Assembly (NCBI GenBank): GCA_023255625.1
Contig: JAHFLF010000001.1
Coordinates: 290,965-354,964, forward strand
Direction of reading: 5' to 3'
Length of the DNA: 64,000 nt
DNA from: Candidatus Harrisonbacteria bacterium
Lineage (GTDB): Bacteria > Patescibacteriota > Minisyncoccia > UBA6257 > 1-14-0-10-44-23
Shown: positions 1,296 through 39,849 of the stretch, piece after piece
How the letters are laid out: every line of letters begins with the position of its first letter
How positions within the stretch are numbered: position 1 is the first letter of the stretch
Program-made: the position numbers and the translations under genes
The notes under the pieces: model-generated
Told to the model about the DNA's origin: nothing
Seen by the model: the letters and a program-made list of their open reading frames with translations, nothing else
Databases searched by the model: none

Positions 1296-2306
1296 TCACG
1301 CGGCGACGAGGTCTTGCGGCTTGATCCTCCAGCCGTGACGCAGGAGGAACTTCCGGACAAGGAAACGACCGCGGTGCTGCACGGCCGAACCGTATCCGGC
1401 GTATCTGTGCTCGCGCATCATCTGCCAGAGCTTCTGGTGATGCGACACGAGCCGAGGATCGGAGAAGATCTTGCGAATCCACTCCTTGTCCCCCGCTGCC
1501 GCAGGCTCCTCGATGTCCATCATCTGCAGGAGGATGTCAGCAGATCTGGCGTAGTTGCCCTTCAGGACCGGCTCGATGGCCAGCTCCCTGTCAGTGCGCC
1601 AGTTAGAGTCGCTCACCTGCTGGCGGATGAGCACGGCGGGCTTGATACCGTACTTCTCTCGCCAAGACTTGATATAGCCGGCGAGTGTCCGGCCCATGAT
1701 GCCAGCTCCCCGCTCGAGAGTGCCGATGCACTGCCCAACGATGTACCGACCTTCGGATTCCATCGTCTCCGGATTGCTGCCCATGCCCTCGCCCGCCTTG
1801 TAGCCATTCTCCTTGAGAATGTCGGCGAGCCTCTTGGACATCCACTCGCCCTCGCAGGCCTCCGGGAGCATCCCGAGCCAGGTGATCACGGCGTTGAGAC
1901 TCTGCATCGGAACCCGAATGGTCCCGAGTGCCTCACGCCGCTGCCGCTCGAACCTCTTCTTCCACCGACGATTCCGCCGGTGGAAACGCTTCAGCGCCAG
2001 CTCACGCTCCGGCGACATGTACGACCGCGCCGCCTGAACCTCCTCGGAAGCCTCCTCCCAGGGAGTATCCGGATCCGCAGACCTCGCCGCATCGACGAGA
2101 TCCTCGGCCGCCTGCTCGCGCCGTTCGCGGAGGTAGTGCCTCCACTCCAGCGTCGGCAGGTGGTCACTCGGACCCACCTCGAAGACCTTCCACCGGACCG
2201 TACGGCCCCGGCGCATGGCCTCGACCTTCATGGCCCGCAGCACCTCGCGGTTGCTCGGCCACTCGCCCTCGAACGCCTCGTCGTGAAGATCCTTGTACAT
2301 CAGCAT
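1296..2306 (-). CDS. hypothetical protein (336 aa), GC-rich island
   Basis: Long ORF. ATG at 2306 is preceded by GGAGGAGCTACG. The antisense ORF 1314..2414 has no SD. Function not recognised. Confidence 0.55.
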   Translation of the reverse strand: MLMYKDLHDEAFEGEWPSNREVLRAMKVEAMRRGRTVRWKVFEVGPSDHLPTLEWRHYLRERREQAAEDLVDAARSADPDTPWEEASEEVQAARSYMSPERELALKRFHRRNRRWKKRFERQRREALGTIRVPMQSLNAVITWLGMLPEACEGEWMSKRLADILKENGYKAGEGMGSNPETMESEGRYIVGQCIGTLERGAGIMGRTLAGYIKSWREKYGIKPAVLIRQQVSDSNWRTDRELAIEPVLKGNYARSADILLQMMDIEEPAAAGDKEWIRKIFSDPRLVSHHQKLWQMMREHRYAGYGSAVQHRGRFLVRKFLLRHGWRIKPQDLVAA

Positions 2307-2562
2307 CGTAGCTCCTCCATGGTTGTTGCCATGTTCCTCGGTGTAGCGAACTACACCGAAGCGAGGAACATACGAACCCAGGGCGACATGCCCCGGAATT
2401 GTTCATCGGTGTAGAGTTGAGAGGTATTACATCTCAGCTCAACCCACCGGCAGCGGAACCATTCCGCATAGCCACTTCATGCCGCCTCCTTTCTCCGTTT
2501 ATTTGGCGGTAAAATATATTATAGCATAATTTATATAGATATGTCAAGCATTTCTATGTATT

Positions 2563-2619
2563 AGTGTACTAGTACACTGTAACAGGAGAAAGGGCTATTC
2601 AGCAGCGTACTAGTACATG
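2563..2619. promoter_or_regulatory. two trp-operator-like palindromes: AGTGTACTAGTACACT (2563-2578) and GCGTACTAGTACATG (2604-2619)
   Basis: Perfect 16-bp and near-perfect palindromes built on a GTACTAGTAC core, the same core as the E. coli TrpR operator half-sites. They sit at the junction of the GC-rich block and the AT-rich backbone. Confidence 0.4.
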
Positions 2620-2644
2620 AATACATGGCAGATTTTAGACCGCG

Positions 2645-3040
2645 CTACAAATTTTCGTACTGCCGGATGTCACAGGTCTCGTGCCAATTTTTTATTGAGG
2701 CCAGCGGGTCTTTTATAGCAATGGCGACAAGATCAATCCGATACCCCAGCTTTTCGTTAACATACTGCGGATAGCGATTTGCAAACCCCTGTGCTAGTCG
2801 CCGCACACGCAACCGCTTCTCTTCATTAAAATGCATCTCTGGAATAAACATTGAGACTGGCCCGGCCAGCGTTTTCACTTCCACAAACACCAAAACCCCT
2901 TTTTGACCCCGCGCAATCACATCAATCTCGCCAACATGTTTCACGCGGTGATTTCTAACCAAAATCCGATATTTCTTTTCTTTCAGGAACTCACAGCATA
3001 TATCCTCCCCTATTTTGCCGATTTCGCTCTTGGTACGCAT
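2645..3040 (-). CDS. yraN: YraN/UPF0102 family endonuclease
   Basis: 131 aa with the GEIDVIAR...LVFVEVKT pattern typical of UPF0102 (Holliday-junction-resolvase-like fold). Confidence 0.65.
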   Translation of the reverse strand: MRTKSEIGKIGEDICCEFLKEKKYRILVRNHRVKHVGEIDVIARGQKGVLVFVEVKTLAGPVSMFIPEMHFNEEKRLRVRRLAQGFANRYPQYVNEKLGYRIDLVAIAIKDPLASIKNWHETCDIRQYENL

Positions 3041-3106
3041 AAATTTATACTATCATATCTCTAAAAAATGTGTTATACTGTATAACATGAAATAAAACCG
3101 GTATGG

Positions 3107-3134
3107 ATACCGTTACGGCAAACATATTTCACGG
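3107..3134. repeat. left arm of a 28-bp inverted repeat (ATACCGTTACGGCAAACATATTTCACGG) enclosing the LAGLIDADG ORF
   Basis: Its reverse complement recurs at 3696-3724 with one mismatch. Seen directly in the sequence. Confidence 0.8.
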
Positions 3135-3136
3135 TT

Positions 3137-3598
3137 ATGAACCTAACGAATGAATACATTAGAGGACTTATAGACGGTGAGGGCTGCTTTTCTTTTTGTA
3201 CAAGCAGTTTCGTAGTAAGAAATGAGACTCTCTACCGCGGAAAGGTACCTGCATTCCAAATTTCAATGCATGTTAGAGACAAGGATCTTATTGAAGGAGT
3301 GCGGGATCATCTTGGCCTGAAAAATAAAGTCTATGTTTATAAATCTTCACAAAAAGATGGAATAAAAAGAGGAGATAAGGCAACCCTAATAGTCAGGAAG
3401 GCTTGTGACCTGAGAATGATAATAGTTCCATTTTTCTATGGTAAATTGCGCGGTCACAAGGGAAAGCAATTCAAGGAGTGGCTAGAAAAAATTGGATCAG
3501 ATGAAAGAGTTGGTGAAAAATTCAAAATTATCCATAGACTCTATAAATGCGGATATTGGGAGAAAATCCAGAATATACCGGAAAAATTCAGGAGTTAA
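3137..3598 (+). CDS. LAGLIDADG-family homing endonuclease (single-motif type)
   Basis: N-terminal YIRGLIDGEGCF is a textbook LAGLIDADG motif. 153 aa, basic C-terminus. Confidence 0.7.
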   Translation: MNLTNEYIRGLIDGEGCFSFCTSSFVVRNETLYRGKVPAFQISMHVRDKDLIEGVRDHLGLKNKVYVYKSSQKDGIKRGDKATLIVRKACDLRMIIVPFFYGKLRGHKGKQFKEWLEKIGSDERVGEKFKIIHRLYKCGYWEKIQNIPEKFRS

Positions 3599-3647
3599 AA
3601 ATTGTTTTACACTTTTCGTGAAACAAATTCGTGATTCAGCAAACAGG

Positions 3648-3656
3648 TTATCCACA
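3648..3656 (+). promoter_or_regulatory. perfect DnaA-box 9-mer TTATCCACA inside an AT-rich iteron-like region
   Basis: Exact consensus DnaA box. It is surrounded by repeated GTTTTAC(G/A)C and GTGAAACAA motifs across 3600-3930. Confidence 0.35.
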
Positions 3657-3695
3657 GAATCTTCGTAAAACAAATAATGTTTTACGCTTTTTGAA

Positions 3696-3724
3696 CCGTG
3701 AAATTTGTTTGCCGTAACGGTATG
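3696..3724. repeat. right arm of the 28-bp inverted repeat enclosing the LAGLIDADG ORF
   Basis: Reverse complement of 3107-3134. Confidence 0.8.
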
Positions 3725-4086
3725 ATATGGAATTCCTGTTCAAATCAAAAACGATGTTTGCCAGAATGTTTCACACTCTTTTAGAGTATTTTGCAAATCC
3801 CCGTTCAGAACAATTGTTTCGCATCTTTTAAACATTTTTTGCAAGTGTAAAACATCCTGTAAAACAAAACCTGCCCGCCTTTGGAGGGAATGTTTTACGC
3901 TTGTGTTTTACAAAAAATTAGCGTGAAACAACGAATATCCGGCAAAATAATGCGGCAATCCGGCAATTGCCTTATTTTTTGCCGTATTACAAAATTCACA
4001 AAATTATCTTATACCCATATTGGCTTGCTGATCAACATTGCCGCCGTATATACCATCAGATGAAGCATGCTCGCTTGACTATCATG

Positions 4087-4104
4087 CAGCGTACTAGTAC
4101 GCTG
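4087..4104. promoter_or_regulatory. 18-bp perfect palindrome CAGCGTACTAGTACGCTG upstream of the TrpR-like gene
   Basis: Perfect palindrome with GTACTAGTAC core, about 50 bp upstream of the start at 4158. Confidence 0.5.
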
Positions 4105-4157
4105 GTACATAGAGACGGTGTCTTTGAGTAATCAATATTAGTAACCAATAAAATAAT

Positions 4158-4442
4158 ATGAATAACCAATACAAAGAAGAGTTAGTAGAACTGCTGCGCA
4201 CTGCAGCTAAAGACGCGAAACTGTTTGAGGCGGTGCTACGCGACATACTCACGCCGTCTGAATATAGAGAAATTGCTAATAGGTGGCAGATAGTTAAAAA
4301 ACTCGCGATGGGAGAGGACCAGCGCGCGATTGCCCAGGATCTTAAGGTTGGTATCACGACCGTCACTCGCGGCGTCCATGTGCTAGAAAACTCGGGCGGG
4401 GGATTCAACCAAATGCTTAGTAAACTCGTCGCACGAAAATAG
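4158..4442 (+). CDS. TrpR/YerC-YecD family (Trp-repressor-like) DNA-binding protein
   Basis: 94 aa. LTPSEYREIANRWQIVKKLAMGEDQRAIAQDLKVGITTVTRG matches the YerC/TrpR-like HTH family. Confidence 0.6.
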   Translation: MNNQYKEELVELLRTAAKDAKLFEAVLRDILTPSEYREIANRWQIVKKLAMGEDQRAIAQDLKVGITTVTRGVHVLENSGGGFNQMLSKLVARK

Positions 4443-4476
4443 CGCCGCTACCCTTCGGCTCATATGACCACTTGAC

Positions 4477-4510
4477 TATGTTACAGTGTACTAGTACACT
4501 GTAACATAGC
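4477..4510. promoter_or_regulatory. 34-bp perfect palindrome CTATGTTACAGTGTACTAGTACACTGTAACATAG downstream of the TrpR-like gene
   Basis: Perfect palindrome centred on GTACTAGTAC. Could be an operator, a bidirectional hairpin, or a recombination site. Confidence 0.5.
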
Positions 4511-4728
4511 TGATTTATCTTCGTTATTACTTAATATGAACTGCTTGACCATGGCAACTAAAAACTCTGCAGAAATTCTCCGCACCTGGTGGGCCGCCCG
4601 ACATACTCGAAGGGCGCGCTTTGTGTTTGCATAACGATTTTTTATAAAATCTTTCGAACTTAAAACCCGCTCTTGGAGCGGCGTTTCTGTTTTCTGAACG
4701 AGATCAGGGGGCTGGATGGAGGTGCTTC

Positions 4729-5427
4729 ATGCCGAATATTACGCCTGTCGATACCGAGCGATTGCTTAGACCCATCACTTCGGAACGTGAGCGGCTCGAG
4801 CGATCAATTTCGAAGTCTCTGCCGTTTGAGCTCTGGGTCACTGGGATTCTGATGCTCATGTTACTCGGCGTACACGTTTTCTGGCCCGCAGACAAACTGG
4901 ATGCACCAATCGTCGCCCCTGCTGTCGAGTCGCAACAGACCGTCCCAGATTTGGAGACGACGACCCAGGCCAGTCATGAGGTGTGCCGGCAGATTCTGCC
5001 AGAGACGATGCTCGAGGCGGCGATAGAGCCCCAGGAAGAACGAACCTACCTCGTCACCTTCAAGACCAAGAAGAACAGCAATTGGACCGACTTCGGGGCG
5101 ACCAGAGAGACCAAGGAGGTGGATGAGGCGACATACAACAAGCACAAGATCGGGCAGGAGGTTAGCAGAAAGCCCGTCGCCTTCAGCTTCCGTGACTACT
5201 ATGCCGTGACCGTCGTGGAGAAGCAGATCAAGCGGAAGTTCTTCTGGATCGACCGAATGGAGAAGCGTCTGCAGGTTGGCGAGCGTGAGTTCCAAGCCGT
5301 TCTTGCAGAATTACAGTCTTGTGGCCGGGCGCCTAAGTTGCCTGTCGCTGCAGGCAAGATTCATTCCTATACCGTGGAGAAGCCGCTCGCTGAAACCGAA
5401 GGAAGCAACTCCAGAGGTGACAAATGA
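4729..5427 (+). CDS. hypothetical protein with N-terminal transmembrane segment (232 aa), GC-rich island
   Basis: ATG preceded by GGATGGAGGTG. Hydrophobic stretch near the N-terminus. Confidence 0.55.
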   Translation: MPNITPVDTERLLRPITSERERLERSISKSLPFELWVTGILMLMLLGVHVFWPADKLDAPIVAPAVESQQTVPDLETTTQASHEVCRQILPETMLEAAIEPQEERTYLVTFKTKKNSNWTDFGATRETKEVDEATYNKHKIGQEVSRKPVAFSFRDYYAVTVVEKQIKRKFFWIDRMEKRLQVGEREFQAVLAELQSCGRAPKLPVAAGKIHSYTVEKPLAETEGSNSRGDK

Positions 5428-5660
5428 AGAAGTTCCTGAAGTACTTCCTGCTCGCGCTCGTAGCTTCTGCGGTGGCGTACACCGTTCGGGCTGAAGAGCT
5501 CGACTGGAATTGGCAGTTCAAGGTCGTGATGTTCGATCGCATCAGGCCAGGGTCACTGGACCCAAGCTGGTGTGGCTGGACTCACATGGCCGTCTGGAAT
5601 CTCTTCATCGCTTGGTGGTACTACACCTACGAATGGAAGAGGCCCCATCGGTTGTGGTGA
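5424..5660 (+). CDS. small secreted/membrane protein (78 aa), Trp-rich
   Basis: ATG overlaps the upstream stop (ATGA). Preceded by AGAGGTGA. Signal-like N-terminus. Confidence 0.5.
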   Translation: MKKFLKYFLLALVASAVAYTVRAEELDWNWQFKVVMFDRIRPGSLDPSWCGWTHMAVWNLFIAWWYYTYEWKRPHRLW

Positions 5661-5698
5661 TGGAGTTTTAATCAACGGACCGCAAAGAGGTGCTAAAC

Positions 5699-6844
5699 AT
5701 GGATATCAAGCAGGTAATGAAGAGGCATGCGTACCAGAACATGCCGCTCGGATACGATGCTGCGTACGAGTTGGGCATGTTGGCACTGCGTGGGTGTGCC
5801 GGAGACCCACTCGCACAGATCCAGAGCATCGTTGCGCTCTCTGCACTGCACACGCGTGCGACCTATCACGCGGCGGATGACGCCGCCGCGGAACAGATCG
5901 CCGGTGTCTGCGCTACCGTCTTTGATCACGACATCGCGACCTCTACGCTCGGCTTCATCGAGCCGGTCGGGGATGTGATGGACAACTGCGGGATGGGTGG
6001 GGACCTGGTTGTGACGGCGAATGTCTCGACCTTGGCCGCACTGATCGCCGCTGCTGGCGGAATCCGAATGTGCAAGCACGGATCGCCAGCGAATGCCGAC
6101 GGTGGTCGACACGGCAGCTCTGACTTCATCGATCTACTGGGCATAGAACGCTGCCCAGAGGTGGGAATGGTCGAACGCTGCGTCGATGAACTCGGCTTCG
6201 GCTACAGCGAGGCATTGGATACACGCTACAAGCGAATCCACTGCCAGACACACGAGGTAGCGCAACTGCCGCACATGAATGACATCATCGGCCCGGTCAC
6301 CAACCCGGTCCGTCCGACCAAGCTGAAGAGGCGCGTACTCGGCATCAACCACCTTATCCCGCCACGGGTGGTCGCCAAGGCGTTCAGAATTCTCAACACT
6401 CGCGGTATCACCGTGGTCACGCATGGATTGTTCGTTCGCGGATTCACCGATGACAGAACGAGCGCATCCGGCATGGACGAGGTTTCAATCTGTCAGGCCG
6501 GCACTCTTGTCGCTGAACTGAAGGATGGAGAGATCACGGAATACTGGCTGACCGCTGAAGACTTCGGTCTGAAGTCGGTCGCAAGCGCCGCAATCTCGCC
6601 GGCGTCGGGCATGTCAAAGGGGGAATTCTCAATGCGCATCTTGTGCGGCGAGATACAGGGACCCCCGCTGCAAATGGTTCTTGCCAATGCAGCGCTCTTG
6701 TTCAAACTGAACGACCCTGCGCTCACTTACCCGGAGGCGTATCAACGGGCAGAACAGATTCACCGCGACAAGCTCGACCAGAACATCGCCACAGAAGTGG
6801 CTCGGCTCATCCCGAGTCAGAAGGGAGCAATGTGTCTCAACTGA
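5699..6844 (+). CDS. glycosyl transferase family 3 protein, anthranilate phosphoribosyltransferase (TrpD)-like
   Basis: MDNCGMGGD...KHGSPANADGGRHGSSDFIDLLGI resembles the TrpD GTGGD/KHGNR region. ATG at 5699 preceded by AGAGGTG. Substrate unknown. Confidence 0.5.
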   Translation: MDIKQVMKRHAYQNMPLGYDAAYELGMLALRGCAGDPLAQIQSIVALSALHTRATYHAADDAAAEQIAGVCATVFDHDIATSTLGFIEPVGDVMDNCGMGGDLVVTANVSTLAALIAAAGGIRMCKHGSPANADGGRHGSSDFIDLLGIERCPEVGMVERCVDELGFGYSEALDTRYKRIHCQTHEVAQLPHMNDIIGPVTNPVRPTKLKRRVLGINHLIPPRVVAKAFRILNTRGITVVTHGLFVRGFTDDRTSASGMDEVSICQAGTLVAELKDGEITEYWLTAEDFGLKSVASAAISPASGMSKGEFSMRILCGEIQGPPLQMVLANAALLFKLNDPALTYPEAYQRAEQIHRDKLDQNIATEVARLIPSQKGAMCLN

Positions 6845-7668
6845 CGAAGAAAAATGTGGGCATCATGATCGACTACGACGGGGTCGTCGTGTTGCAAACA
6901 ACGCAGCGGCCCACCTGTGACCCCAAGGCGATGTTCGAGCGACTCGCCCGAGCAGGGGTGATCATCATCCCGAACTCTGACACGCCAGTGGATCGTCTCA
7001 TGAGAAACTTCGAGGAAGCTACCGGCATCAAGCCAGCGCACCTCGTCGCAGAGCGCGGAGCAGTAGTCGTGAGCGAAAAAAAGCGCCACTACTACAAGCC
7101 CCAAGGCGACTTGTTCAAGCAGTACCGCAGTGCAATACAAGAAGCGCTGACCAGGGCCGGCATCGAAGTACTCATCAATGATGCGGCGAACTGGGTGCGC
7201 GATGTCCGTACGCATACACCCAACAGTCGCATGGCAATTCTCGACGGCATGCGCGAACTAAGCTTTTGCGCCTTCTTCCGGAGGACTGACGAATCCGGAG
7301 GGCCGTACATCGACCACGAATTCATGCAGGACTGCCTGCACGTCATCGACACCGTGGAGCCGCCAGTCGAGATCGAGAGGCAGACGGACAAATGTTTCGG
7401 GATCATGATCGGTAGCATTCCCGGAGTGAGCAAGACTACCGGTTTCCGGATTCTGCGTGATCTCTTCCGTGAGCCAATGCAGTGGTACATGATTGGAGAC
7501 GGCGAGGGCGACCTGATCGACGCAGATGAAGTAACGCATTGCGCGGTCGGCAATGCACAAGACGCACTGATCCACCGATGCGCGTTCCGAGCAAAACATT
7601 CGTACACCGACGGATTGCTCGAATGCCTCGACTGGATCAGCGCAAAGGAGAATCTATCAGAGCACTAG
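6832..7668 (+). CDS. HAD-superfamily hydrolase (Cof-like)
   Basis: IMIDYDGVVV (HAD motif I DxDG) and MIGDGEGD near the C-terminus. Likely GTG start at 6832 after AAGGGAG. Overlaps the end of the upstream gene. Confidence 0.55.
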   Translation: MSQLTKKNVGIMIDYDGVVVLQTTQRPTCDPKAMFERLARAGVIIIPNSDTPVDRLMRNFEEATGIKPAHLVAERGAVVVSEKKRHYYKPQGDLFKQYRSAIQEALTRAGIEVLINDAANWVRDVRTHTPNSRMAILDGMRELSFCAFFRRTDESGGPYIDHEFMQDCLHVIDTVEPPVEIERQTDKCFGIMIGSIPGVSKTTGFRILRDLFREPMQWYMIGDGEGDLIDADEVTHCAVGNAQDALIHRCAFRAKHSYTDGLLECLDWISAKENLSEH

Positions 7669-7690
7669 GGGGAGCTCGGCTCCCCCTACC
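7667..7690 (+). terminator. hairpin GGGGGAGCTCGGCTCCCCC at the border between GC-rich and AT-rich sequence
   Basis: Perfect stem immediately after the stop of the HAD gene. Confidence 0.4.
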
Positions 7691-7699
7691 CCCAATACA

Positions 7700-8383
7700 A
7701 TGAAAAAAATTACCGTTCTCTCAACCTATAGCCAAGATCTGCACTTTCAAGCAGATGATACTTTTATTAAAAAACGCCTCGGCGGACCAGCATTTTTCTT
7801 AAAAAAAACACTTGATCAGAAAAATATTCCTCATAAGATAAAACATGGGAAATTATACCGTATCGCGATACGGTATACGCACAATGGAGAGGAAAACGGA
7901 ACGGTGCTACATAAGCCGCCTCGTAATAAGACGCCGCAAATAATAAAAACACCCTATCTTATCATCTCAACTATCCTGGATGAGTGGCCGCTGCAGATCT
8001 CGGGGTACAAAGGAATATCTTTTATAGATCTACAAGGATTTGCAAGAGGGGGAAAGCAAATAAAATTTCCGGCAAACGCAAAACCGTTCTGCGTTAAAGG
8101 AACTCGGCAAGAAGTAAAGTATTTGAACCCTGGCGACCTTCGGACGCAAAAAAAAGAATGCTTGATTGTTACAGATGGAGGGAGAGGAGTTAAATTATTC
8201 TTCAAAGGAAAACGATACTCTTTCCATATCAAAAAACCCGTGGAAACAACTAATACCGTGGGGGCAGGAGATACTTTTTTCGGTTGCTTTGTGGCAACAT
8301 TTATACAGACTAACAATCCTATTAAAAGTTGCGAAAATGCTATACGACAAACTAATACATTCCTAAAATCACATGAAAGATAA
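7700..8383 (+). CDS. PfkB-family (ribokinase-like) sugar kinase, short form
   Basis: C-terminal VGAGDTFFGCFVA matches the PfkB signature 2 (DTxGAGD). Confidence 0.55.
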   Translation: MKKITVLSTYSQDLHFQADDTFIKKRLGGPAFFLKKTLDQKNIPHKIKHGKLYRIAIRYTHNGEENGTVLHKPPRNKTPQIIKTPYLIISTILDEWPLQISGYKGISFIDLQGFARGGKQIKFPANAKPFCVKGTRQEVKYLNPGDLRTQKKECLIVTDGGRGVKLFFKGKRYSFHIKKPVETTNTVGAGDTFFGCFVATFIQTNNPIKSCENAIRQTNTFLKSHER

Positions 8384-9197
8384 GCTGGCGAAATTTTCGC
8401 AAATATTCGGAGGAAAAAATAACATAGTTATCGGAGCTATTCATCTTCCTCCTCTCTTAGGTTACGCAGATTACCCAGGTATAAAAGTCGCACTTAAGAA
8501 TGCATTAGCTGACCTGCGGGCATTCGAAAAAGGCGGTGTTCATGGGATTATTTTTGAAAACAATTACGATATACCTCATAAAGAAAAAGTCAGCCCTGGC
8601 ACAATCGCTGGGCTGATGTATGTCGGATCGGTGCTTCGCAAAAAAACAAAATTACCGCTAGGAGTTAGCGTCTTATGGAATGATTACGAGTCGGCATTGG
8701 CCATAGCAAAAACTTTAGATCTCCAGTTTATCCGTATCCCGGTATTTATTGATACCGTGAAGACTAATATTGGTATTATTCAGGGTAAGCCGGAAAAAGT
8801 GATTGCCCTGAAACAAAAAATAGCGGCCGCGAAAATAATGCTTTTTACTGATATTCATGTTAAACATTCAAAGGTCATTTCAAAAATGAACCTGGAAGAA
8901 TCAGCGCAAGCGGCTATGAGCAATGGGTCGGACGCAATCATTGTCACAGGTGCTTGGACAGGGCAGAGTCCGGATATCGCAACATTAGAAAAATTAAGAA
9001 CTAGAATAAAAAAATTCCCGCTGCTTGTCGGCAGCGGATTTAGCGCTCAGAATGCACGCACACTGATGCGCCATGCCACTGGGGCGATAGTCAGTACTGC
9101 TCTTAAAAATGGGCATTCAAAAGCTAATGAACAAAATGTCAAAAGTTATAATCAAAGAATATCATTGGAAAAGGTCAAACAGCTCTTTACTTTATAG
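8373..9197 (+). CDS. BtpA/SgcQ family TIM-barrel protein
   Basis: N-terminal IGAIHLPPLLGY resembles the BtpA family VIGMVHLLPLPG motif. Overlaps the upstream gene by 11 nt. Confidence 0.5.
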   Translation: MKDKLAKFSQIFGGKNNIVIGAIHLPPLLGYADYPGIKVALKNALADLRAFEKGGVHGIIFENNYDIPHKEKVSPGTIAGLMYVGSVLRKKTKLPLGVSVLWNDYESALAIAKTLDLQFIRIPVFIDTVKTNIGIIQGKPEKVIALKQKIAAAKIMLFTDIHVKHSKVISKMNLEESAQAAMSNGSDAIIVTGAWTGQSPDIATLEKLRTRIKKFPLLVGSGFSAQNARTLMRHATGAIVSTALKNGHSKANEQNVKSYNQRISLEKVKQLFTL

Positions 9198-9326: not shown

Positions 9327-9352
9327 AACCGCCCCCGAGCGGTTTTTTTGTT
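9327..9352 (+). terminator. rho-independent terminator ACCGCCCCCGAGCGGT followed by a T-tract
   Basis: Stem-loop followed by TTTTTTTGTTTTT. Confidence 0.5.
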
Positions 9353-9499
9353 TTTCGCACCAGCGAAAAACAACCCTGCGTAGCTTGTAGAGCGAAGCAC
9401 GGGTCAGCATTTTCTCGGGGAAAATTGTCCGCACAAGCGTCTTGAATGAAACCCTCATTCACTTGCGCGGACTGGCTCTTTGAGAAAGGAATAGCGAGT

Positions 9500-9706
9500 A
9501 TGCCGCCGTACATGGGGAGTATCGATGGGTCGACTAACGGCGAGCTGCCAAGGCGTTGCTCGCACTGGCCGACTTCTGAGGGTCGTGTCCCGTGCAACAA
9601 CTGCAACGCCTCGATCGGTTGCGGGCAGCCGCACTTCAAATGGCAGTGCGCGGAGTGCAAGCAATGGTTCTGCGTCAGGCCCGACCAATTTGGTCGGGAC
9701 GGGTAG
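9500..9706 (+). CDS. small Cys-rich protein (CNNC...C...CAEC), possible zinc ribbon
   Basis: ORF in GC-rich block. Start uncertain (ATG at 9446 or 9500). Several CxxC pairs. Confidence 0.35.
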   Translation: MPPYMGSIDGSTNGELPRRCSHWPTSEGRVPCNNCNASIGCGQPHFKWQCAECKQWFCVRPDQFGRDG

Positions 9707-9784
9707 TGCGCAAGCCGGCGCGAGCTTCAGGGAGCGTTCGCTCCCGCTCGCGCCGGCCAGAGTTCTTTCCGAGAAGGAGATGCG

Positions 9785-10273
9785 ATGTCGAAAGAGACGC
9801 TGACTCACCAGTTGTTCGCGTTGCAGTGCGGCATGGTCTTGAGGGACTACGACAACCCGATCGAGGACTCCAAGCGGCAGGAGATCAACGTCTCCGATGC
9901 CATCGCTCCGGAAGACCTCGGGTGCGGGATCTTCTTCGAGTTCCCCGGGATGACAGACGAACACGCCCCGAAGGCACTCCGCGGCCAGCAGTTCCTGGCG
10001 GTGGCAGTGCTCGAAAAAGACCGCGTGTTTGTGTCGACGGTCATCGATCCCGACACTCATCGCGAGAAGGGACTCAAGCTCGCAGCCCTGATGTTCGGCC
10101 GGTTCACTCGTCCGTCGGCCGCAAGGCTGGCGAACCCGGACAGCATCTGGCAGTGGGCGGCTCGATCCTCTCGGGCCAGCCTCGACGGCTACGAGAGCGC
10201 CGAGGTGATCGCTCGCGAGACGCCGTGCCACTGCGGGCGCATGCATGCCCCGGCGAACTGCTGGGCGACCTAG
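9785..10273 (+). CDS. hypothetical protein (162 aa)
   Basis: ATG preceded by AAGGAGATGCG. Overlapping ORFs in other frames lack an SD. Confidence 0.5.
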   Translation: MSKETLTHQLFALQCGMVLRDYDNPIEDSKRQEINVSDAIAPEDLGCGIFFEFPGMTDEHAPKALRGQQFLAVAVLEKDRVFVSTVIDPDTHREKGLKLAALMFGRFTRPSAARLANPDSIWQWAARSSRASLDGYESAEVIARETPCHCGRMHAPANCWAT

Positions 10274-10276
10274 CAG

Positions 10277-10843
10277 ATGCACGACACCCTCGGCATCATC
10301 GCTGGCATCCTGACGCTCGCTGGGTTTATCCCGGCGGGCGTCGGGGCAGTACGCGGACCAGTTCGCCCAAGCAGAGCGACTTGGCTCATTTGGGCGGTGG
10401 AGGCCATCTTGATCTACAAGACCTTCGCCGCCGCAACTCCAGACTCAAGCGCTCTCTGGATCCCGCTTGGATTTACCGTTGGAGCCGCAGGGATGTTTCT
10501 CCTGTCTGTTCCGTTCGGTGAAGGCGGGTGGAGCACGCTCGACAAGTGGTGTCTGGCAGGCGCAGGTGCCACGATCATCTTCTGGCACCTCGTTGGACCT
10601 GTCGCTGGACTGCTCGCCGGTATCGCCACCGACATGATCGGAGCGGTGCCGACGGCGGTCAAGACATGGAGAGATCCGAAGAGCGAGAGTCGTGCGCAGT
10701 GGTTGCTTTGGTGGCTCGGTGCCATCTTCAACCTCTGTGCGATCAAGAACTGGCAATCCGTGGAGGCGGCGTATCCGCTTTACGGATTTGTTCTGACAAC
10801 CACGATGGCCGGCGTGATTGCCGGCAGAAGGAATGGTGTCTGA
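10277..10843 (+). CDS. multi-pass membrane protein, paralog of the 46542..47126 product
   Basis: Shares TWLIWA..., K(T/S)W(R/Q)DP(K/W)SE and NLC(A/S) motifs with the AT-rich paralog. Confidence 0.5.
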   Translation: MHDTLGIIAGILTLAGFIPAGVGAVRGPVRPSRATWLIWAVEAILIYKTFAAATPDSSALWIPLGFTVGAAGMFLLSVPFGEGGWSTLDKWCLAGAGATIIFWHLVGPVAGLLAGIATDMIGAVPTAVKTWRDPKSESRAQWLLWWLGAIFNLCAIKNWQSVEAAYPLYGFVLTTTMAGVIAGRRNGV

Positions 10844-11238
10844 TGCCGCCGTATCTGAGAGAGCTTCCGACGTGGTATGGAGATCCGCCGCCGCGTTGTC
10901 AGCACCCCCACCAAAAGCCATCACGTTCGCGTTGCTCATCGTGTGGCTATCCGGGCATCGAGTTCGTCTGTTCGAAGTGCGAAGAGAAGGTCAAATTCGT
11001 ACCAGACGAGCGACGCAAAGAACGCAAGAGTCCTCCAAAGGGCAAATGCGTCTATGAGCACAAAAGCGCCTGTCGCCATGACGGGAAGCTCTATCCGGAT
11101 CGGTGCTTCCATTGCGAGTGCGTGACGATGAAGTACAAGTGCACCACATCTAAAACCTTCATCGAGTCCTCTCGTGGTTCGCCCAACGTCGAGAGGGAAC
11201 CGGGGAAAGGCGAGTTTTCGGGAGCTGAGAGTTATTAG
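10843..11238 (+). CDS. Cys-rich protein (131 aa) with several CxxC motifs
   Basis: ATG overlaps the upstream stop (TGATG). CSSC, CSKC and CFHCEC motifs. Confidence 0.45.
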   Translation: MPPYLRELPTWYGDPPPRCQHPHQKPSRSRCSSCGYPGIEFVCSKCEEKVKFVPDERRKERKSPPKGKCVYEHKSACRHDGKLYPDRCFHCECVTMKYKCTTSKTFIESSRGSPNVEREPGKGEFSGAESY

Positions 11239-11337
11239 CCGGAGGTGTAAGACTCCGGCAAGCAACGCGGCGGCATCGACCCACAAGGTTGATGACCGCC
11301 GCGCTTCATTTTTCAATATTAAAAAACAACAATTTTG

Positions 11338-11409: not shown

Positions 11410-11544
11410 ACTTAGTGTGCAAAAGCACACTGTGCGCCTAGGAGGAGTCGGACCTCCGACCAGAATGTATAAGATTCTTGTTTTACCGTTAAACTATGGG
11501 CGCCCATATAGACTAGCGGATTGAGGAAGTTTATTCAATGAGAA

Positions 11545-20694: not shown

Positions 20695-20758
20695 AGTTCA
20701 ACTCCGACGCTCACAGTAGTGAGGTCGGAGCCCCGACCTACTGCGTCTGGGTGGATAA
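20695..20758. repeat. about 64-bp direct repeat, copy 2
   Basis: See 20272-20335. Confidence 0.8.
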
Positions 20759-20808
20759 GACAAGGGGTTTCTAACCCCTCAATCTAGGTTCGATTCCTAG
20801 CGGGGACA
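20757..20808 (+). other. tRNA-like 3' fragment (anticodon-arm-like AGGGG-TTTCTAA-CCCCT, T-arm CTAGG-TTCGATT-CCTAG, CGGGGAC-A-CCA) with no adjacent 5' half
   Basis: Canonical T-loop and encoded CCA. The only candidate 5' acceptor strand (GTCCTCG) lies at 20274-20280, immediately before repeat copy 1. Confidence 0.4.
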
Positions 20809-20868
20809 CCATGGATAGTTAATCGGTTAGTCAGTTAGTTGGTTAGTTGGTAAAACGAAAAACTAATT

Positions 20869-26932: not shown

Positions 26933-27275
26933 GACAATAAATGATTGGAATAAGTGAGAAGCGCAGATTTTGATGCAGTTCTAGGCGCGGGAGGGCGGTT
27001 TGTGAGCCGTACTTTTATATAAGTACGGTGAGCAAACCGACGGGACCCGCAACAACGAACTGCTCAAAATATGCATTTCTCACACACAATAACTCTGTAG
27101 TTGCCCCAAATTACGATTCCGGTTCTTGCGATTCCTCCGAAGGAGGATCCGCCTATGGCGGAAAAGTGTCGTGACTTAGAGCTCCACGACCAACACTCTT
27201 TTTCTATCAATCCAGTATATAAATATACTGAAGTGTCGCTTTTTCCTAATCTCCATTTACAGAGAAAGAAAAAAG

Positions 27276-29180
<1,905 letters not shown>

Positions 29181-29630
29181 TAATAAGTAATTTGAAATTC
29201 ATCTAGCCGAAGCCAGATGAATAACAAACACTCTTGTTTTGGGACAACTACACAATTATTGTTGCATACTTTATATCTGCTTGAAGGATATAAAGATTTT
29301 GATTTCCTAATCATTCATTTATCTTTATAGTTTTTAGTATCTTTCGATACAAACATTTTCAAAGAACGAAAGGTATACTCAATTCACTTTTTGAAGTGAA
29401 AATAATACACCCGTCTCGGCGACCTATCGTATGATCTGCAATACGACGACGAGACGGATGCGCTGGTCTGATATATGTTTTTCCGCCAGAGGCGGATCCG
29501 CCTTCGGCGGACAATTTGTACGAATTTCGCGGGATGTTTCGCTGGTTCGTTTGTACTGCCTTAAGCCAGTACTAATGTGGCTTCTAGTATAGTCGACCGA
29601 ATAATAAAGTCAAGACCTTATTAACGAAGC

Positions 29631-35913: not shown

Positions 35914-36168
35914 TTAATGCTGGGTCAAGCTTTGCCGCAAACGGAGTTTTAACTTCGCCAGCGCCCAGCCATGGTACTTAAGTTGCTTCTCGCGCTCTCG
36001 AGCGTCAGCTTCAACGCGATAGGCCTCGTAGTATATCAGTTCCCACTTATGCCCTCGCGTAGAAAAAACCTTGCCGTTGTTATGTGCGGCAAAGCGAACT
36101 CGCAAATCGTTTGTACTTCCAGTGTACAACTCATTGAGTTCATTACGAATTACATAAACATAATGCAT
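35914..36168 (-). CDS. GIY-YIG nuclease superfamily protein (YhbQ-like), second copy
   Basis: MHYVYVIRNELNELYTGSTNDLRVRFAAHN carries the GIY-YIG motif. Flanked by inverted ACCCAGCACTAACTT copies. Confidence 0.65.
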   Translation of the reverse strand: MHYVYVIRNELNELYTGSTNDLRVRFAAHNNGKVFSTRGHKWELIYYEAYRVEADAREREKQLKYHGWALAKLKLRLRQSLTQH

Positions 36169-36300
36169 GCAGTGATTCTATCACTGCATGCAGGCAAAAG
36201 TTAGTGCTGGGTAAATAGAAACGAATTGTGAGTAGGCGATACTCGGGGATTATATACCGGAGTGCCTATCAGCAACGTTCGCGGATTCCTGTGATTGAAT

Positions 36301-36447
36301 GATTCTCCCTTTCCTAAAGGGAGTACTCCGACGTTACGTCGGAGGGAGGGATTTAAGTCCTCCAAAAAACCAATTGATTCGCAGACCCGGCTTTTCTTAT
36401 TCTCCCTTTCCTAAAGGGAGTACCGCCACTAGGCGGGGAGGGATTTT
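36301..36447. repeat. two tandem REP/MITE-like elements (36301-36355 and 36396-36447) at the left border of the largest GC-rich island
   Basis: GATTCTCCCTTTCCTAAAGGGAGTA-CTCCGACGTTACGTCGGAG-GGAGGGATTT and CTTATTCTCCCTTTCCTAAAGGGAGTA-CCGCCACTAGGCGG-GGAGGGATTTT. The central hairpins differ but keep their pairing. Confidence 0.8.
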
Positions 36448-36594
36448 CTCTCTTCTGCAAAAGCCGGATAAGCGAGTCCGTTGATCGCGCACAAGGTGTG
36501 CGCGGAAGCGAACTCAACTCGTGCATCTTAATGGTAGAGATGCAGCAGAGTAGGATTTTCCCCCTAGGCGAAAAGGGGAAAGGAGAAATATACC

Positions 36595-37326
36595 ATGCGT
36601 CGTAATCCAGAAAGTTGCGTTGCGCGCGCCCTGCGCGCGCAGGGCGACCTCGCGAAGCGCGAGGCGGCCCAGAAGGCCGCGGCGGCTCGTGCCGCCGCGG
36701 AAGCTCGGCGGAGCGCCCTGCTCCGCGAGCACTCCGTCCTCGCCAGTTGGCGGGGCGGGTTCGAGGAGGCGGCACGCCGCTTCCTCCTGTGCGCCGCCAA
36801 AGGCGGCGCATTCCACGCGGACGCCGCCGCCTGGCTCGCCGGTCTCTCCGAGGGAGTGGTGGTCTCGGGCTGGGATGTCCAGCGCGCTGCCACTTTGATG
36901 GTGGCCGAGACCGAGGCGCTGGAAGCCGTCGGTAGCATCCGCCGCGTGCCGCGTACGCCGGCAGAGCTCGATGCTCTGCTGACCGCGGCTTGGCCGGTCG
37001 CGGTCGCCCGGGACGGGCGGACCGAAGGATACAACGGCCCGGCCAACGGTTTCGACCGTTGGAACGGGCAGTTGACGCCGCCCGAGGGGAAATCCTACCT
37101 CGGTGGCGAGGTCGCCGACGCCGGCTTCGTCTGGAACGCGGGTGGGCGTTCCACCCCCGGACTCCGTCCGCTCGCGGACGGTCGGTGGGAAGTGTTGGTC
37201 GCCGTCCCGCGGTGGTACCTGGAGGGGGACTCGACGGCGCTCAACGCCGTCGGGGGCTACTGCTCCATGGGCGCGCCGCTCCCGCGGTCCCAGTGGGACT
37301 GGCGCTGCGAGCCCCTGCGCTCGTAG
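36595..37326 (+). CDS. hypothetical Ala/Arg-rich protein (243 aa), island gene 1
   Basis: AAAGGAGAAATATACC before the ATG. Overlapping alternative-frame ORFs are probably GC artefacts. Confidence 0.5.
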   Translation: MRRNPESCVARALRAQGDLAKREAAQKAAAARAAAEARRSALLREHSVLASWRGGFEEAARRFLLCAAKGGAFHADAAAWLAGLSEGVVVSGWDVQRAATLMVAETEALEAVGSIRRVPRTPAELDALLTAAWPVAVARDGRTEGYNGPANGFDRWNGQLTPPEGKSYLGGEVADAGFVWNAGGRSTPGLRPLADGRWEVLVAVPRWYLEGDSTALNAVGGYCSMGAPLPRSQWDWRCEPLRS

Positions 37327-37723
37327 TCGCCACCCCTCACCCGTTTTGAAGCAACGGGAACGATGAGGTAACGCTTCAAGAGAGGAGGTGAGTCGTAAGG
37401 GGTCTTTTCATCCTGGTTTTCGCCATCAAGCAAAACCAAGGAGTTTTCGGGAATCAGTCCCGACGAGTATCAGCTTCTGAGCGGCTGATACTTTAGAATG
37501 GTTAGCTCTTCGCGCTGGTGGGGGAGGTCAGACTCGTTCTGATCTCTCCCCACCGCAAATTTTATGAATTCGTATCAGGATTTTTCTGGATTCCCGCTTT
37601 CGCGGGAATGACAGACAGAAAATTGATATGAGTTCGTAAGGTACGGGCTCAAGAATCACTACCACGCGTTGCTGTCATGGGCAGCGCGTTGGTTTCGCCC
37701 TGACGGGCAATTGGAGGTTTACC

Positions 37724-38212
37724 ATGACCGAGCCGACATACACAGGGGAAGCGATGAGCTTTCGGAAGCGGCTGCCGGAGCCGCTGGCTGGGTTGGTCCG
37801 AGACCTCTCGGACCAACGGACACGGTTCGCCGCGTTCCAGTTCTCCGGGTGGCTGATCGGCGCCTTGGAGGCGGTGTCCCCCCGGAAGTTGGTTCCGGGG
37901 CCGGAGTACATCAAGGACGAAAAGGTCAACGCCAGGCGGGAGCTGGCGTTGTCGGCGGCACGGAGTGCACACGAACTTCTCGAGTGGTACCAAGACATGG
38001 GCTGCAGGGGGCGCCTGTGGGTATCTCGTCTTCTCCCCACGCGCGCCGAGTATGGGAACATCTCTGCCTCCCTGAGGGACGGCATGGAATTCCTCCGTCA
38101 GGAGGATGTCGTCGTTGCGCTCAATCGCGCGATGGAAGAGGCGAAGAATGCCTCGGATCAGGAGGTTGACCTCCCTGCGCGCAAGAAGGAGAGATTCGCT
38201 CGGCCGAGCTGA
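37724..38212 (+). CDS. hypothetical protein (162 aa), island gene 2
   Basis: TGGAGGTTTACC before the ATG. Confidence 0.5.
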   Translation: MTEPTYTGEAMSFRKRLPEPLAGLVRDLSDQRTRFAAFQFSGWLIGALEAVSPRKLVPGPEYIKDEKVNARRELALSAARSAHELLEWYQDMGCRGRLWVSRLLPTRAEYGNISASLRDGMEFLRQEDVVVALNRAMEEAKNASDQEVDLPARKKERFARPS

Positions 38213-38544
38213 CCGAGCGGCGTAAAAATACCAGAATGGCTCTCTGGCAGTGAGTTAAAATCCAGTAGCTCATGCGAATGTAATCCGCTCATCGGATACT
38301 GGTTCAGCGTGCGAACAAGACTCGCGCACGCTGGAAAGGGTTTCAGGAGTCAGCCTTGGTGAGGGGTCGGCAGCGATGTCGGCCCCTCCCAGAAAAACTG
38401 CGTATTCGCGGGTGGAAGTTTCAAACGGAAATTTTTACGCGCGAGTCCGTTGTAACCGGATTCGAAAAGAGAAAACCGCTATCGCATCCTTCGTGGTAGG
38501 AGGTGCGATGAGCTTCGTCCTTCGGGACAAAAGGAGTGACTACC

Positions 38545-38865
38545 ATGAGTCTAAGGGGAGACGACAGCTATCTCGGACCATTCCACCGTCAGCGCACCCC
38601 GGCCGAGGCGGCGGCTGACGCGCCGCATGAGCTCCTCCGGAAGCAGGAGCTTGACGCCGCCGAAAGGATGTACCGCGCGGCGACTGCGGCCGAGTCGCCG
38701 CGGAAATCCAGGAGTGTCGTAGATCTCCTGGATCAGGGCTGCGCGGCGACTGCGGCGGAGAGGGAGTACCTCGCCGCCCGACATCGGGCCGAGAGACGCT
38801 TCGGCAACCGGAACATCCCGGGGGCTGACGGAGGGCCGGGTGGTGGCCAAACGCCCGACGCGTAG
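38545..38865 (+). CDS. hypothetical protein (106 aa), island gene 3
   Basis: AAAAGGAGTGACTACC before the ATG at 38545. Confidence 0.5.
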   Translation: MSLRGDDSYLGPFHRQRTPAEAAADAPHELLRKQELDAAERMYRAATAAESPRKSRSVVDLLDQGCAATAAEREYLAARHRAERRFGNRNIPGADGGPGGGQTPDA

Positions 38866-39156
38866 CCGGGCAGGTCAGCCGAAAACGCCGGGTTAGCCAC
38901 CGGCGTAAATATTCCCAGAGTGGCGCTCTGGGCTGGATGACAAAATACACCCTGTCATCCTGTGGGTTTCTCCGGCGCTGTTAAACGCCGGTGATAAGGG
39001 TAGCGCGTGGCGGAGGAGTGGGAAGACCCCACCCTCCGCCGCACAAAATTCAAACAAAGATTTTTGCGATGGACATTTACATTATGCGTTCCTGGGGACG
39101 CTTGGTCTATCGCAGAAACCTCTGCTTGAAAGACAGCTGGGGAGAAAGAGTGGTTT

Positions 39157-39375: not shown

Positions 39376-39386
39376 TCCGCGTCCTG

Positions 39387-39770: not shown

Positions 39771-39849
39771 CAAAGCGCGCTATCTCAAAACCTCTGCTTG
39801 AAACACAACGGAGGAGAAAGGTTAGCCGTTGCGGAACCGGAGGGCTAAG

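Follow-up and report, generated by a model that had tools for sequence, protein, structure and literature searches.

The 64,000-nucleotide stretch analyzed here (the window), positions 290,965 to 354,964 of contig JAHFLF010000001.1 of a Candidatus Harrisonbacteria bacterium, is of the candidate phyla radiation (CPR)/Patescibacteria genome type and contains a locus in which four palindromic sites and a leader with tandem tryptophan codons are arranged around a gene of the TrpR family. This locus is probably a tryptophan (Trp)-sensing control module built like the trp control region of E. coli, a reading to which we give a probability of about 0.8. CPR bacteria have tiny genomes with few recognizable regulators and almost no amino-acid biosynthesis, and their regulation has been little studied; a literature search found no paper on TrpR operators or Trp attenuation in CPR bacteria. 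The locus offers a fully specified circuit in several CPR lineages, comprising a repressor, a 28-bp operator consensus, two promoters and a leader attenuator, and would extend dual trp control, that is, repression combined with attenuation, beyond Proteobacteria. The mechanism is a known one in a new phylum, with an unexpected cargo.

The palindromic sites share the 10-bp core GTACTAGTAC, which occurs exactly four times in the window, all within a span of 2 kb, as an initial annotation made from the sequence alone had reported. None of 100 dinucleotide-preserving shuffles of the window gave any copy (0 expected). When up to two mismatches were allowed, 12 copies were found against 9.3 expected, the eight extra ones being scattered over the window, and neither this mismatch search nor a matrix scan placed degenerate core copies above chance elsewhere in it. 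The tetranucleotide CTAG, which forms the center of the core, is under-represented in the window, with 97 observed occurrences versus about 249 expected from base composition. The extended sites are the following.

2557-2584: site 1, extended operator TGTATTAGT-GTACTAGTAC-ACTGTAACA, core at 2566-2575, a TrpR-type match
2598-2625: site 2, core at 2607-2616, a weaker operator copy
4082-4109: site 3, core at 4091-4100, with a perfect 18-mer palindrome at 4087-4104, over the trpR promoter
4476-4509: site 4, core at 4488-4497, a 34-bp perfect palindrome over the leader promoter

The palindrome lengths first reported hold for site 1, whose perfect palindrome is the 16-mer AGTGTACTAGTACACT at 2563-2578, and for the 18-mer of site 3; site 2 (AGCGTACTAGTACATG at 2604-2619) is a perfect palindrome over its 10-bp core only, and the 34-mer of site 4 is shifted by one from the position first given. 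Sites 1 and 2 together form a 24-nt inverted repeat (88%), and sites 1 and 4 share 90% identity across 31 nt. An operator weight matrix trained on the sites of relatives alone, with the window's own sites excluded, recovers exactly these four sites in the 64 kb; it scores them at 39.8, 28.6, 24.5 and 39.7 bits (sites 1 to 4), compared with 6.2 bits for the best non-site and a maximum of 11.7 bits in shuffled sequence.

The loci of relatives (L001, L002 and so on) were gathered as those encoding TrpR homologues with 35-66% identity to the window protein, and their organism labels are Saccharibacteria, Yanofskybacteria, Harrisonbacteria and Liptonbacteria. Across the 12 lineages and 131.8 kb of sequence that make up the footprint of the exact core, 25 distinct sites are present, each no more than 1.6 kb from trpR. 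In 11 of these lineages a site precedes trpR at a distance of 2-77 bp, and the twelfth (L011) has a one-mismatch copy there. In more distant lineages, cores that differ by one base stand at this position (GTAGTAGTAC in L024 and L026, GTACTGGTAC in L036). The symmetrized consensus of the conserved sites extends over 28 bp and reads TGTAnCAGT-GTACTAGTAC-ACTGnTACA. The E. coli consensus operator is GTACTAGTTAACTAGTAC, the DNA of structure 1TRO (PMC2504314). Site 4 agrees with it in two registers separated by exactly 8 bp, with 13 of 18 positions matching in each, so that the 28-mer resembles two E. coli-type operators that overlap and share the CTAG. In L001, a palindrome at 4258-4280, between divergent LAGLIDADG and YraN genes, has arms as in the operator and the center CTCCGAG in place of CTAG (AGTGTACTC-C-GAGTACACT).

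The placement of the sites relative to promoters is equally regular. At 11 of the 25 sites, among them 8 of the 11 located just upstream of trpR, the trpR-sense strand carries a TTGAC -35 box before the core, at either of two fixed distances. Where TTGAC lies 16 nt before the core, as in the clade of the window, the core takes up the last part of the spacer together with the -10 box; where the distance is 27-29 nt, as in other lineages, the core follows directly after the -10 box, over the predicted start site. The two promoters of the window locus are the following.

4075-4103, + strand: predicted trpR promoter, with -35 box TTGACT (4075-4080), a 17-nt spacer ending in CTAG and -10 box TACGCT (4098-4103)
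4472-4500, + strand: leader promoter, with -35 box TTGACT (4472-4477), a 17-nt spacer and -10 box TACACT (4495-4500)

The trpR promoter was read from the sequence, its TTGAC offset of 16 nt being that of site 4 and of L001 and L002, and the leader promoter was called by the promoter scan with 9 of 12 matches. The layout TTGACT-N17(...CTAG)-TAnnnT mirrors the natural E. coli trp operator CGAACTAGTTAACTAGTACGCAAG (PMC11748629). The core of site 3 ends 58 bp upstream of the trpR ATG. Site 4 begins 34 nt after the trpR stop codon, and its 38-nt promoter-operator is identical to the only one present in L001, where it lies upstream of trpR. Because site 3 overlaps the trpR promoter, its position implies that it would serve as the autoregulatory operator of trpR. 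The suggestion that the palindromes are autoregulatory operators thus fits in so far as they are predicted operators of the adjacent TrpR; autoregulation would apply to only one of the four, with site 4 serving the leader promoter.

Sites 1 and 2 are located 3′ of the YraN gene, 23 and 64 bp upstream of the -35 box of a perfect leftward promoter at 2547-2518 (- strand, TTGACA-18-TATAAT). A site 3′ of YraN is also found in L007 (at 1879) and L018 (at 1795), 49-73 bp upstream of the nusA promoter. The position is conserved, and sites 1 and 2 are most likely auxiliary operators or a roadblock at the border of YraN and the leftward promoter; they could also be a duplication relic. In the more distant loci with the variant core, GTAGTAGTAC stands directly after the -10 box of the trpR promoter and of the promoter of a TrpD-like gene (L024, 4965-4985 and 5405-5440; L026, 1475-1495 and 1890-1910). 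The users of GTAGTAGTAC form a sister group of TrpR homologues (46-52% identity), and the change of operator may go with a change in the protein.

The regulator itself is encoded between sites 3 and 4.

4158-4442, + strand: trpR, a 94-aa protein of the Trp-repressor family

Pfam model PF01371 (Trp_repressor) matches residues 8-90 with 60.4 bits (cut-off 27; E = 1.8e-16), and the protein aligns over its full length to the E. coli TrpR chains in the PDB (E ~4e-6). The AlphaFold model, with a predicted local distance difference test (pLDDT) score of 88.7, comprises six helices in the TrpR fold, and its best Foldseek matches are 1trr_A and 1tro (template modeling (TM) score 0.78, probability 1.00, 33-34% identity). 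The YerC/YecD proteins of Firmicutes belong to the same Pfam family and are of similar size (about 100 aa), but the NCBIfam YerC/YecD model TIGR02531 reaches only 18.4 bits (cut-off 42.2), compared with 49 bits for the TrpR model, and the Firmicute TrpR-like PDB proteins 3frw, 3kor and 3g1c share 16-22% identity with the window protein. By its family scores, the 94-aa gene is of TrpR type and not YerC-like, so that of the initial label "TrpR/YerC-like" the first half stands; the accompanying calls of a 94-aa TrpR-family open reading frame (ORF), a YraN gene, a LAGLIDADG gene and a TrpD-like gene were all right according to Pfam and NCBIfam.

In the alignment with relatives and E. coli TrpR, residues T32, R42, R56, T68 and R71 are invariant (E. 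coli T44, R54, R69, T81 and R84), and I66, T70 and G72 of the window protein are identical to E. coli I79, T83 and G85. In E. coli TrpR, the corepressor's indole ring lies sandwiched between R54 and R84, and R69 and the I79-T83 helix face the operator. For T44, R54, R69, I79, T81, T83, R84 and G85, we take the pocket or DNA-contact roles to be those of the 1TRO and 2OZ9 literature. Since these corepressor-pocket and operator-facing residues are kept, Trp binding and recognition of a similar DNA half-site are plausible for the window protein.

Downstream of site 4, the locus contains a leader element that the initial annotation had missed.

4536-4634, + strand: trpL-like leader ORF of 32 codons (MNCLTMATKNSAEILRTWWAARHTRRARFVFA, then stop), with tandem Trp codons at 4587-4592 and an alternative start at 4551
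4587-4694, + strand: attenuator RNA, with pairings 1:2 (4591-4599/4612-4621) and 2:3 (4606-4629/4655-4678) and a terminator stem at 4667-4681
4667-4694, + strand: attenuator terminator called by the scan, CCGCTCTTGGAGCGG followed by a T-rich tail

All close relatives conserve the nucleotide sequence that follows site 4. The leader ORF contains an in-frame TGGTGG, and its tandem or triple Trp codons (WW or WWW) are invariant in 12 lineages, the peptides otherwise diverging. A single T separates the trpR stop codon from the leader ATG in L001, L002 and L036 (TAA-T-ATG), and the start context TTAATATGAA, shared with relatives, is retained in the window. The leaders of relatives also have a GC-rich hairpin followed by a U-rich tail, which is weak in L012. 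When the attenuator was folded with the 5′ part of the RNA masked to mimic ribosome position, a ribosome on the WW codons left the antiterminator as the minimum-energy structure (-22.9 kcal/mol), which takes up the 5′ arm of the terminator, and a ribosome at the stop codon let the terminator form (-13.2 kcal/mol). The same switch is seen in 10 of 12 lineages, with all terminator pairs replaced by the antiterminator when the ribosome is on the Trp codons. In a seven-lineage alignment, the 20 antiterminator pairs are 96.4% paired and three of them (five cells) have changed on both sides, giving a covariation score that was equalled by 1 of 500 shuffles; controls in which the partner was slid by 1-3 columns paired at 27-57%. 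Hairpin 1:2 is paired at 82.5%.

It is very unlikely that the sites are operators but that the ORF and hairpins after site 4 represent an ordinary trpR terminator and a chance ORF, with no attenuation. In L001 and L002 the element comes directly after trpR, where a terminator would be expected anyway, and the missing Rfam match and Shine-Dalgarno sequence fit such an explanation as well. Against it stand the invariance of the in-frame Trp codons in 12 lineages despite divergent peptides, the conservation of the antiterminator with compensatory changes, and the presence of an operator of its own immediately upstream of the leader element in the window, L005, L007, L012, L018 and L023, joined in the window by a -35/-10 pair. 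In addition, the same design recurs before a TrpD-like gene without a nearby trpR (L054) and before trpEGDC (L036).

In the proposed attenuation and repression circuit, the 94-aa TrpR homologue, presumably as a Trp-loaded dimer, would bind the palindrome with the invariant core GTACTAGTAC over an extent of about 28 bp. As the 28-mer corresponds to two E. coli-type 18-bp operators offset by 8 bp with a shared CTAG, two tandem dimers would most likely be bound. At site 3, lying across the spacer and -10 box, binding would shut off trpR when Trp is plentiful; at site 4, which covers a second promoter in the same manner, 46 bp beyond the end of trpR, it would control transcription of the 32-codon WW leader. 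When charged tRNA-Trp is scarce, the ribosome would stall on the WW codons, the antiterminator 2:3 would form and RNA polymerase would read on. When Trp is plentiful, a ribosome at the stop codon would cover segment 2 and the terminator 3:4 would form at 4667-4694. Read-through would produce a single unit at 4729-9197, with a conserved core of TrpD-like and BtpA genes to which, in the window, HAD-like and PfkB-like genes are added.

This design can be compared with several known systems. With E. coli TrpR and the operators of trpEDCBA, aroH and trpR (1TRO), the locus shares the protein family and fold, the R54/R84 pair together with R69, I79, T81 and T83, and operators based on ACTAGT/CTAG that lie over the spacer and -10 box or the start of a sigma-70-type promoter, with the repressor's own gene among the targets. 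It differs in having one CTAG-centered 10-bp core with weaker repeats 8 bp away, whereas E. coli has two CTAGs 8 bp apart; the window protein is also shorter (94 versus 108 aa) and scores too low for an NCBIfam equivalog, it comes from a CPR host, and its targets are other than the canonical trp or aro genes. The best structural match, 1TRR, is an entry with tandem TrpR dimers on a short, single-CTAG half-site palindrome, the DNA of which we take to contain GTACTAGTAC. Unlike that complex, tandem occupancy in the window is suggested by sequence only, and the flanking half-sites ACAGT/ACTGT are degenerate.

The E. coli trpL leader, which has 14 codons, likewise places adjacent Trp codons and mutually exclusive antiterminator and terminator structures before structural genes. 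In contrast, the window leader has 32 codons and no similarity to Rfam Trp_leader, and in close relatives the leader starts 1 nt after the trpR stop codon, which indicates that trpR and leader are co-transcribed there. In E. coli, attenuation at trpL is combined with TrpR repression of the same promoter (PMC7755916). In the trpRBA operon of Chlamydia trachomatis, trpR comes first, separated from Trp-supply genes by an intergenic regulatory region that carries a second promoter; the annotated TrpL has no consecutive Trp codons and was judged a poor attenuator, and the second promoter is under YtgR (PMC7755916). The gene order and the reduced-genome, host-dependent type of bacterium are like those of the window, which differs in its clear WW attenuator, its second TrpR operator and a cargo of TrpD-like and BtpA genes in place of trpBA. 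The circuit is thus distinct from known ones in its single-CTAG core, the trpR-coupled leader of relatives, its phylum and its cargo.

Other explanations of the palindromes involve the two genes that lie between sites 2 and 3.

2645-3040, - strand: YraN/UPF0102 gene, from the family search
3137-3598, + strand: single-motif LAGLIDADG protein of 153 aa, from the family search

The palindromes might be recombination sites, either the ends of an inserted element, as the initial annotation had also considered, or the crossover points of an invertible YraN-LAGLIDADG segment. This is hardly probable, even though L001, L002 and the P0003 contig have the segment (window 2620-4080, YraN with or without LAGLIDADG gene and box cluster) in the orientation opposite to that of the window, L007, L018 and L011, a site is present at each segment end in the window, L007 and L018, and sites 1 and 4 are so nearly identical. 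No recombinase or transposase family was found in the neighboring ORFs scanned by Pfam and NCBIfam, the independent same-strain assembly L003 has the identical orientation, and the lineages with the flipped segment have one site only. Sites also occur downstream of trpR before leaders, where no rearrangement is seen, and they track trpR promoters. Furthermore, comparison of synteny, which had been suggested as a check, revealed that the nusA ... trpR-leader ... ftsH backbone is conserved across lineages, so that the module is not an insertion. Programmed inversion and an inserted element were therefore rejected, given the absence of a recombinase in the scanned ORFs and the identical arrangement in L003; at most, the palindromes may be passive substrates of a rare inversion. 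The YraN(-)/trpR(+) arrangement, common to the window, L007, L018 and L011, looks ancestral.

The chance is slight that the palindromes function only as RNA hairpins, as terminators or processing sites, and not as protein-binding DNA. Site 4 lies close behind the trpR stop codon and is also flagged by the promoter scan as a weak terminator-like hairpin, and the L007 site at 1879 forms a long hairpin with G7T5 behind it on the YraN strand. A hairpin would allow its paired bases to change together, but all 25 distinct sites have an identical 10-bp core within variable flanks; most sites have no T-run, and the 11 sites located 16 or 27-29 nt after TTGAC are upstream of or at the predicted start. 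The invariant core within varying flanks and the fixed -35 offsets led us to reject a plain-terminator function. Hairpin and operator roles could coexist at site 4, where a hairpin at the 3′ end of trpR is possible besides the operator.

Single-motif LAGLIDADG enzymes favor palindromic targets of about 20 bp and cut across the central 4 bp. That the palindromes are recognition or cleavage sites of the neighboring homodimeric LAGLIDADG endonuclease is most improbable and was rejected. A 153-aa one-motif gene does lie between the sites, the 16-34-bp palindromes have a 4-bp CTAG center, and L001, L007 and the P0003 contig preserve the synteny of LAGLIDADG, YraN and trpR. Nevertheless, the exact core persists beside trpR in L002, L011/L020 and L018, where ample flanks yield no LAGLIDADG homologue by tblastn, the sites track the -35/-10 boxes and trpR or leader rather than the endonuclease gene, and the core matches the operator of the adjacent regulator's own family. 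The YraN and LAGLIDADG genes are synteny neighbors and not demonstrable TrpR targets.

The transcription unit that the TrpR-leader module would control is composed of plus-strand ORFs, tightly packed or overlapping, from 4729 to 9197. Between 4694 and 9327, the plus strand has no terminator of comparable strength, and no promoter-like site exceeds 9 of 12 matches. The unit contains the following features.

4729-5427, + strand: putative ORF of 232 aa with a hydrophobic stretch
5424-5660, + strand: putative ORF of 78 aa with a signal-peptide-like N-terminus and 9 Trp residues (11.5%)
5699-6844, + strand: TrpD-like phosphoribosyltransferase-fold protein of 381 aa (Pfam Glycos_transf_3, E = 3.9e-32)
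6865-7668, + strand: HAD-like protein of 267 aa (weak NCBIfam phosphoglycolate phosphatase match, E = 3e-4)
7700-8383, + strand: short PfkB-like kinase of 227 aa (weak NCBIfam ribokinase/PfkB matches in the C-terminal part)
8373-9197, + strand: BtpA/SgcQ-family TIM barrel of 274 aa (NCBIfam TIGR00259, 189.6 bits, above the cut-off)
9327-9354, + strand: intrinsic terminator ending the unit, AACCGCCCCCGAGCGGTT followed by TTTTTGTTTT

The 232-aa and 78-aa ORFs have no Pfam or NCBIfam family and no homologues in the related loci. The assignments of the HAD-like and PfkB-like genes are matched in L024, where a Pfam HAD hydrolase occupies the equivalent operon position and the PfkB-like counterpart (30% identity) has a Pfam PfkB match. 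The BtpA-like model (pLDDT 89.5) is a generic phosphate-binding barrel with no discriminating structural neighbor. G+C content is 57-59% in the TrpD-like and HAD-like genes and 39-41% in the PfkB-like and BtpA genes.

The TrpD-like protein is related to anthranilate phosphoribosyltransferase (AnPRT), its best PDB match being AnPRT 4hkm (E = 4.6e-21). It scores 144.2 bits with the NCBIfam trpD model TIGR01245, below the cut-off of 199, and of the two Pfam domains found in the TrpD of L036 only PF00591 is detected, the N-terminal helical-bundle domain PF02885 being absent from the matches. The motifs for phosphoribosyl pyrophosphate (PRPP) and magnesium (GxGGD, NxST, KHG and DE) are kept, with GMGGD, NVST, KHG and MDEVS aligning with L036 TrpD and 4hkm. 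Residues of the anthranilate site are lost (KHGN to KHGS, ..YHP.. to ..LDT.., VRR to QTH), and these changes are conserved throughout the CPR subfamily. We take the Asn of KHGN, and the His and Arg corresponding to M. tuberculosis H183 and R193, to be the anthranilate-site residues in question. Because the PRPP and magnesium motifs are kept and the acceptor pocket is remodelled, a substrate other than anthranilate is possible, and the enzyme may ribosylate such an acceptor.

TrpD-like relatives number at least 480 (E <= 1e-10). Those listed besides the window's own (n = 119) have 56-67% identity, and the organism names among the matches listed are all those of a CPR/Patescibacteria group or an unclassified "bacterium". 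A BtpA gene adjoins the TrpD-like gene in every context examined, and the link first drawn between the palindromes and the TrpD-like gene is borne out by relatives in which this gene lies directly behind TrpR sites and Trp-codon leaders. L012 (Liptonbacteria) has the order operator, trpR, operator, WW leader, TrpD-like and BtpA. In L024, TrpD-like, HAD, BtpA and PfkB genes follow a variant TrpR operator set right after the -10 box; L013 and L026 are similar, and in L026 the pair is directly behind a variant TrpR site. In L036, the order is operator, trpR, WWW leader, trpE, trpG, trpD and trpC, which argues that the TrpR family also regulates canonical trp operons.

Three further contexts, which lack trpR (L050, L052 and L054), again contain a TrpD-like gene followed by BtpA. 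In L054 (5720-5900), a promoter, the WWW leader MNRLSSVNWWWIKMTFCKA and a terminator precede the TrpD-like and BtpA genes; upstream genes encode a class-I aminoacyl-tRNA synthetase of 331 aa (Trp/Tyr family) and a protein with a chorismate-mutase domain. In L050 (5772-5910), a leader with two separated Trp codons precedes the pair. L052 (5707-5905) has instead a T-box-like leader (RF00230, 51.9 bits, E = 1.6e-10, below the gathering score) with a very short stem I, the sole bulge of which is UUGG and possibly contains a UGG specifier. Since the pair stands, in different lineages, behind three independent Trp-sensing devices, namely TrpR operators, WW/WWW leaders and a T-box-like leader, we tentatively propose that the TrpD-like and BtpA proteins, here with the HAD-like and PfkB-like proteins, might constitute an unrecognized route of Trp supply or sparing in CPR bacteria, an idea on the doubtful side of even odds. 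A literature search pairing BtpA with TrpD found nothing relevant. TrpD-like and BtpA/SgcQ proteins are function-unknown families widespread in CPR bacteria, and the label "induced when tryptophan is scarce" turns what was an annotation dead end into a concrete biochemical question.

Several observations weigh against reading the locus as a Trp-sensing control module. All of the support is comparative or computed. At the protein level, the NCBIfam TrpR model TIGR01321 gives 49.1 bits and does not reach its equivalog cut-off of 67.25, which makes the 94-aa protein, by this model, a divergent TrpR member not callable as an equivalog, and this protein has A, T and V where E. coli TrpR has K72, A80 and S88. 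At the promoters, the trpR -10 box TACGCT is weak (3 of 6 positions) and was not called by the promoter scan, and sites 1 and 2 have no TTGAC at the offsets used elsewhere and overlap no recognizable promoter, a repressor role there not being evident. There is no Shine-Dalgarno sequence at trpR or the leader. The unconstrained minimum-energy fold of the window leader is the antiterminator and not 1:2 plus 3:4, and the two remaining lineages of the masked folding (L012 and L036) show no switch in this simple ribosome-mask model.

Further points of the same kind come from Rfam and from the cargo. The Rfam Trp_leader covariance model found no match even at E <= 5 in 2250-4800; a permissive Rfam scan of the same interval gave only chance miRNA and snoRNA matches caused by the palindromes and no leader family, and a scan of the whole window at the gathering threshold had no match at the trpR locus. 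As modelled, the leader element acts like trpL yet is outside the Rfam Trp_leader sequence family. The cargo is not the canonical trp gene set, tblastn with the L036 TrpE, TrpG, TrpD and TrpC found no canonical trp genes in the window, and the anthranilate-site residues of the TrpD-like protein are lost, as described above. In L001, L002, L005 and L007, the ORFs after the leader are unrelated GC-rich ones that are not homologous among these closest relatives, and the cargo behind the module is therefore variable. Finally, the 78-aa ORF with nine Trp residues sits in a unit supposedly expressed when Trp is scarce, which may be a paradox or may mean that it is not a real gene.

The surroundings of the module show additional features. 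G+C is 36% at 3-4 kb, flanked by stretches of 57-59%. GC-rich stretches at 1-2500, 5000-7600, 9400-11300 and 36000-40000 have 57-62% compared with about 47% elsewhere, and their ORFs are mostly without any family; those beside the trpR module vary among close relatives and so behave as variable islands. The leftward promoter leads, on the minus strand (2547-2333), into a tiny ORF with a strong Shine-Dalgarno sequence (MKWLCGMVPLPVG, 2480-2439) and then a long hairpin (2369-2333), just ahead of a 336-aa GC-rich gene; promoter and tiny ORF (MKWNLSIPLLVG) are conserved in L001.

The LAGLIDADG ORF is flanked by a 30-nt inverted repeat with 97% complementarity (3107-3136/3694-3723), which starts 1 nt before the ATG, and in L001 a 29-mer of this repeat occurs twice as a direct repeat beside the gene; the repeats might delimit a small mobile cassette or form an mRNA-enclosing stem. 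In the intergenic region that follows, the 8-mer GTRAAACA, counted on both strands, has 10 of its 13 window matches within 3603-3930, with 3.55 expected for the whole window. Comparable clusters are found in the corresponding intergenic region of L001 (3420-3770), L002 (4880-5420) and L007 (2900-3100), and these boxes could be iterons or origin-like protein-binding sites. With regard to a replication origin at 3603-3930, only one perfect DnaA box (TTATCCACA, at 3648) is present, and canonical boxes are not enriched.

Elsewhere in the window, the 16S rRNA gene at 27274-29184 measures 1911 nt against the 1533-nt model, which indicates an insertion, and a group I intron is located at 45372-45644. 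The tRNA genes include a tRNA-Ile with anticodon UAU (11432-11503) and, beside a normal tRNA-Arg(UCU), a second tRNA-Arg(UCU) at 20745-20811 that is short (67 nt) and low-scoring.

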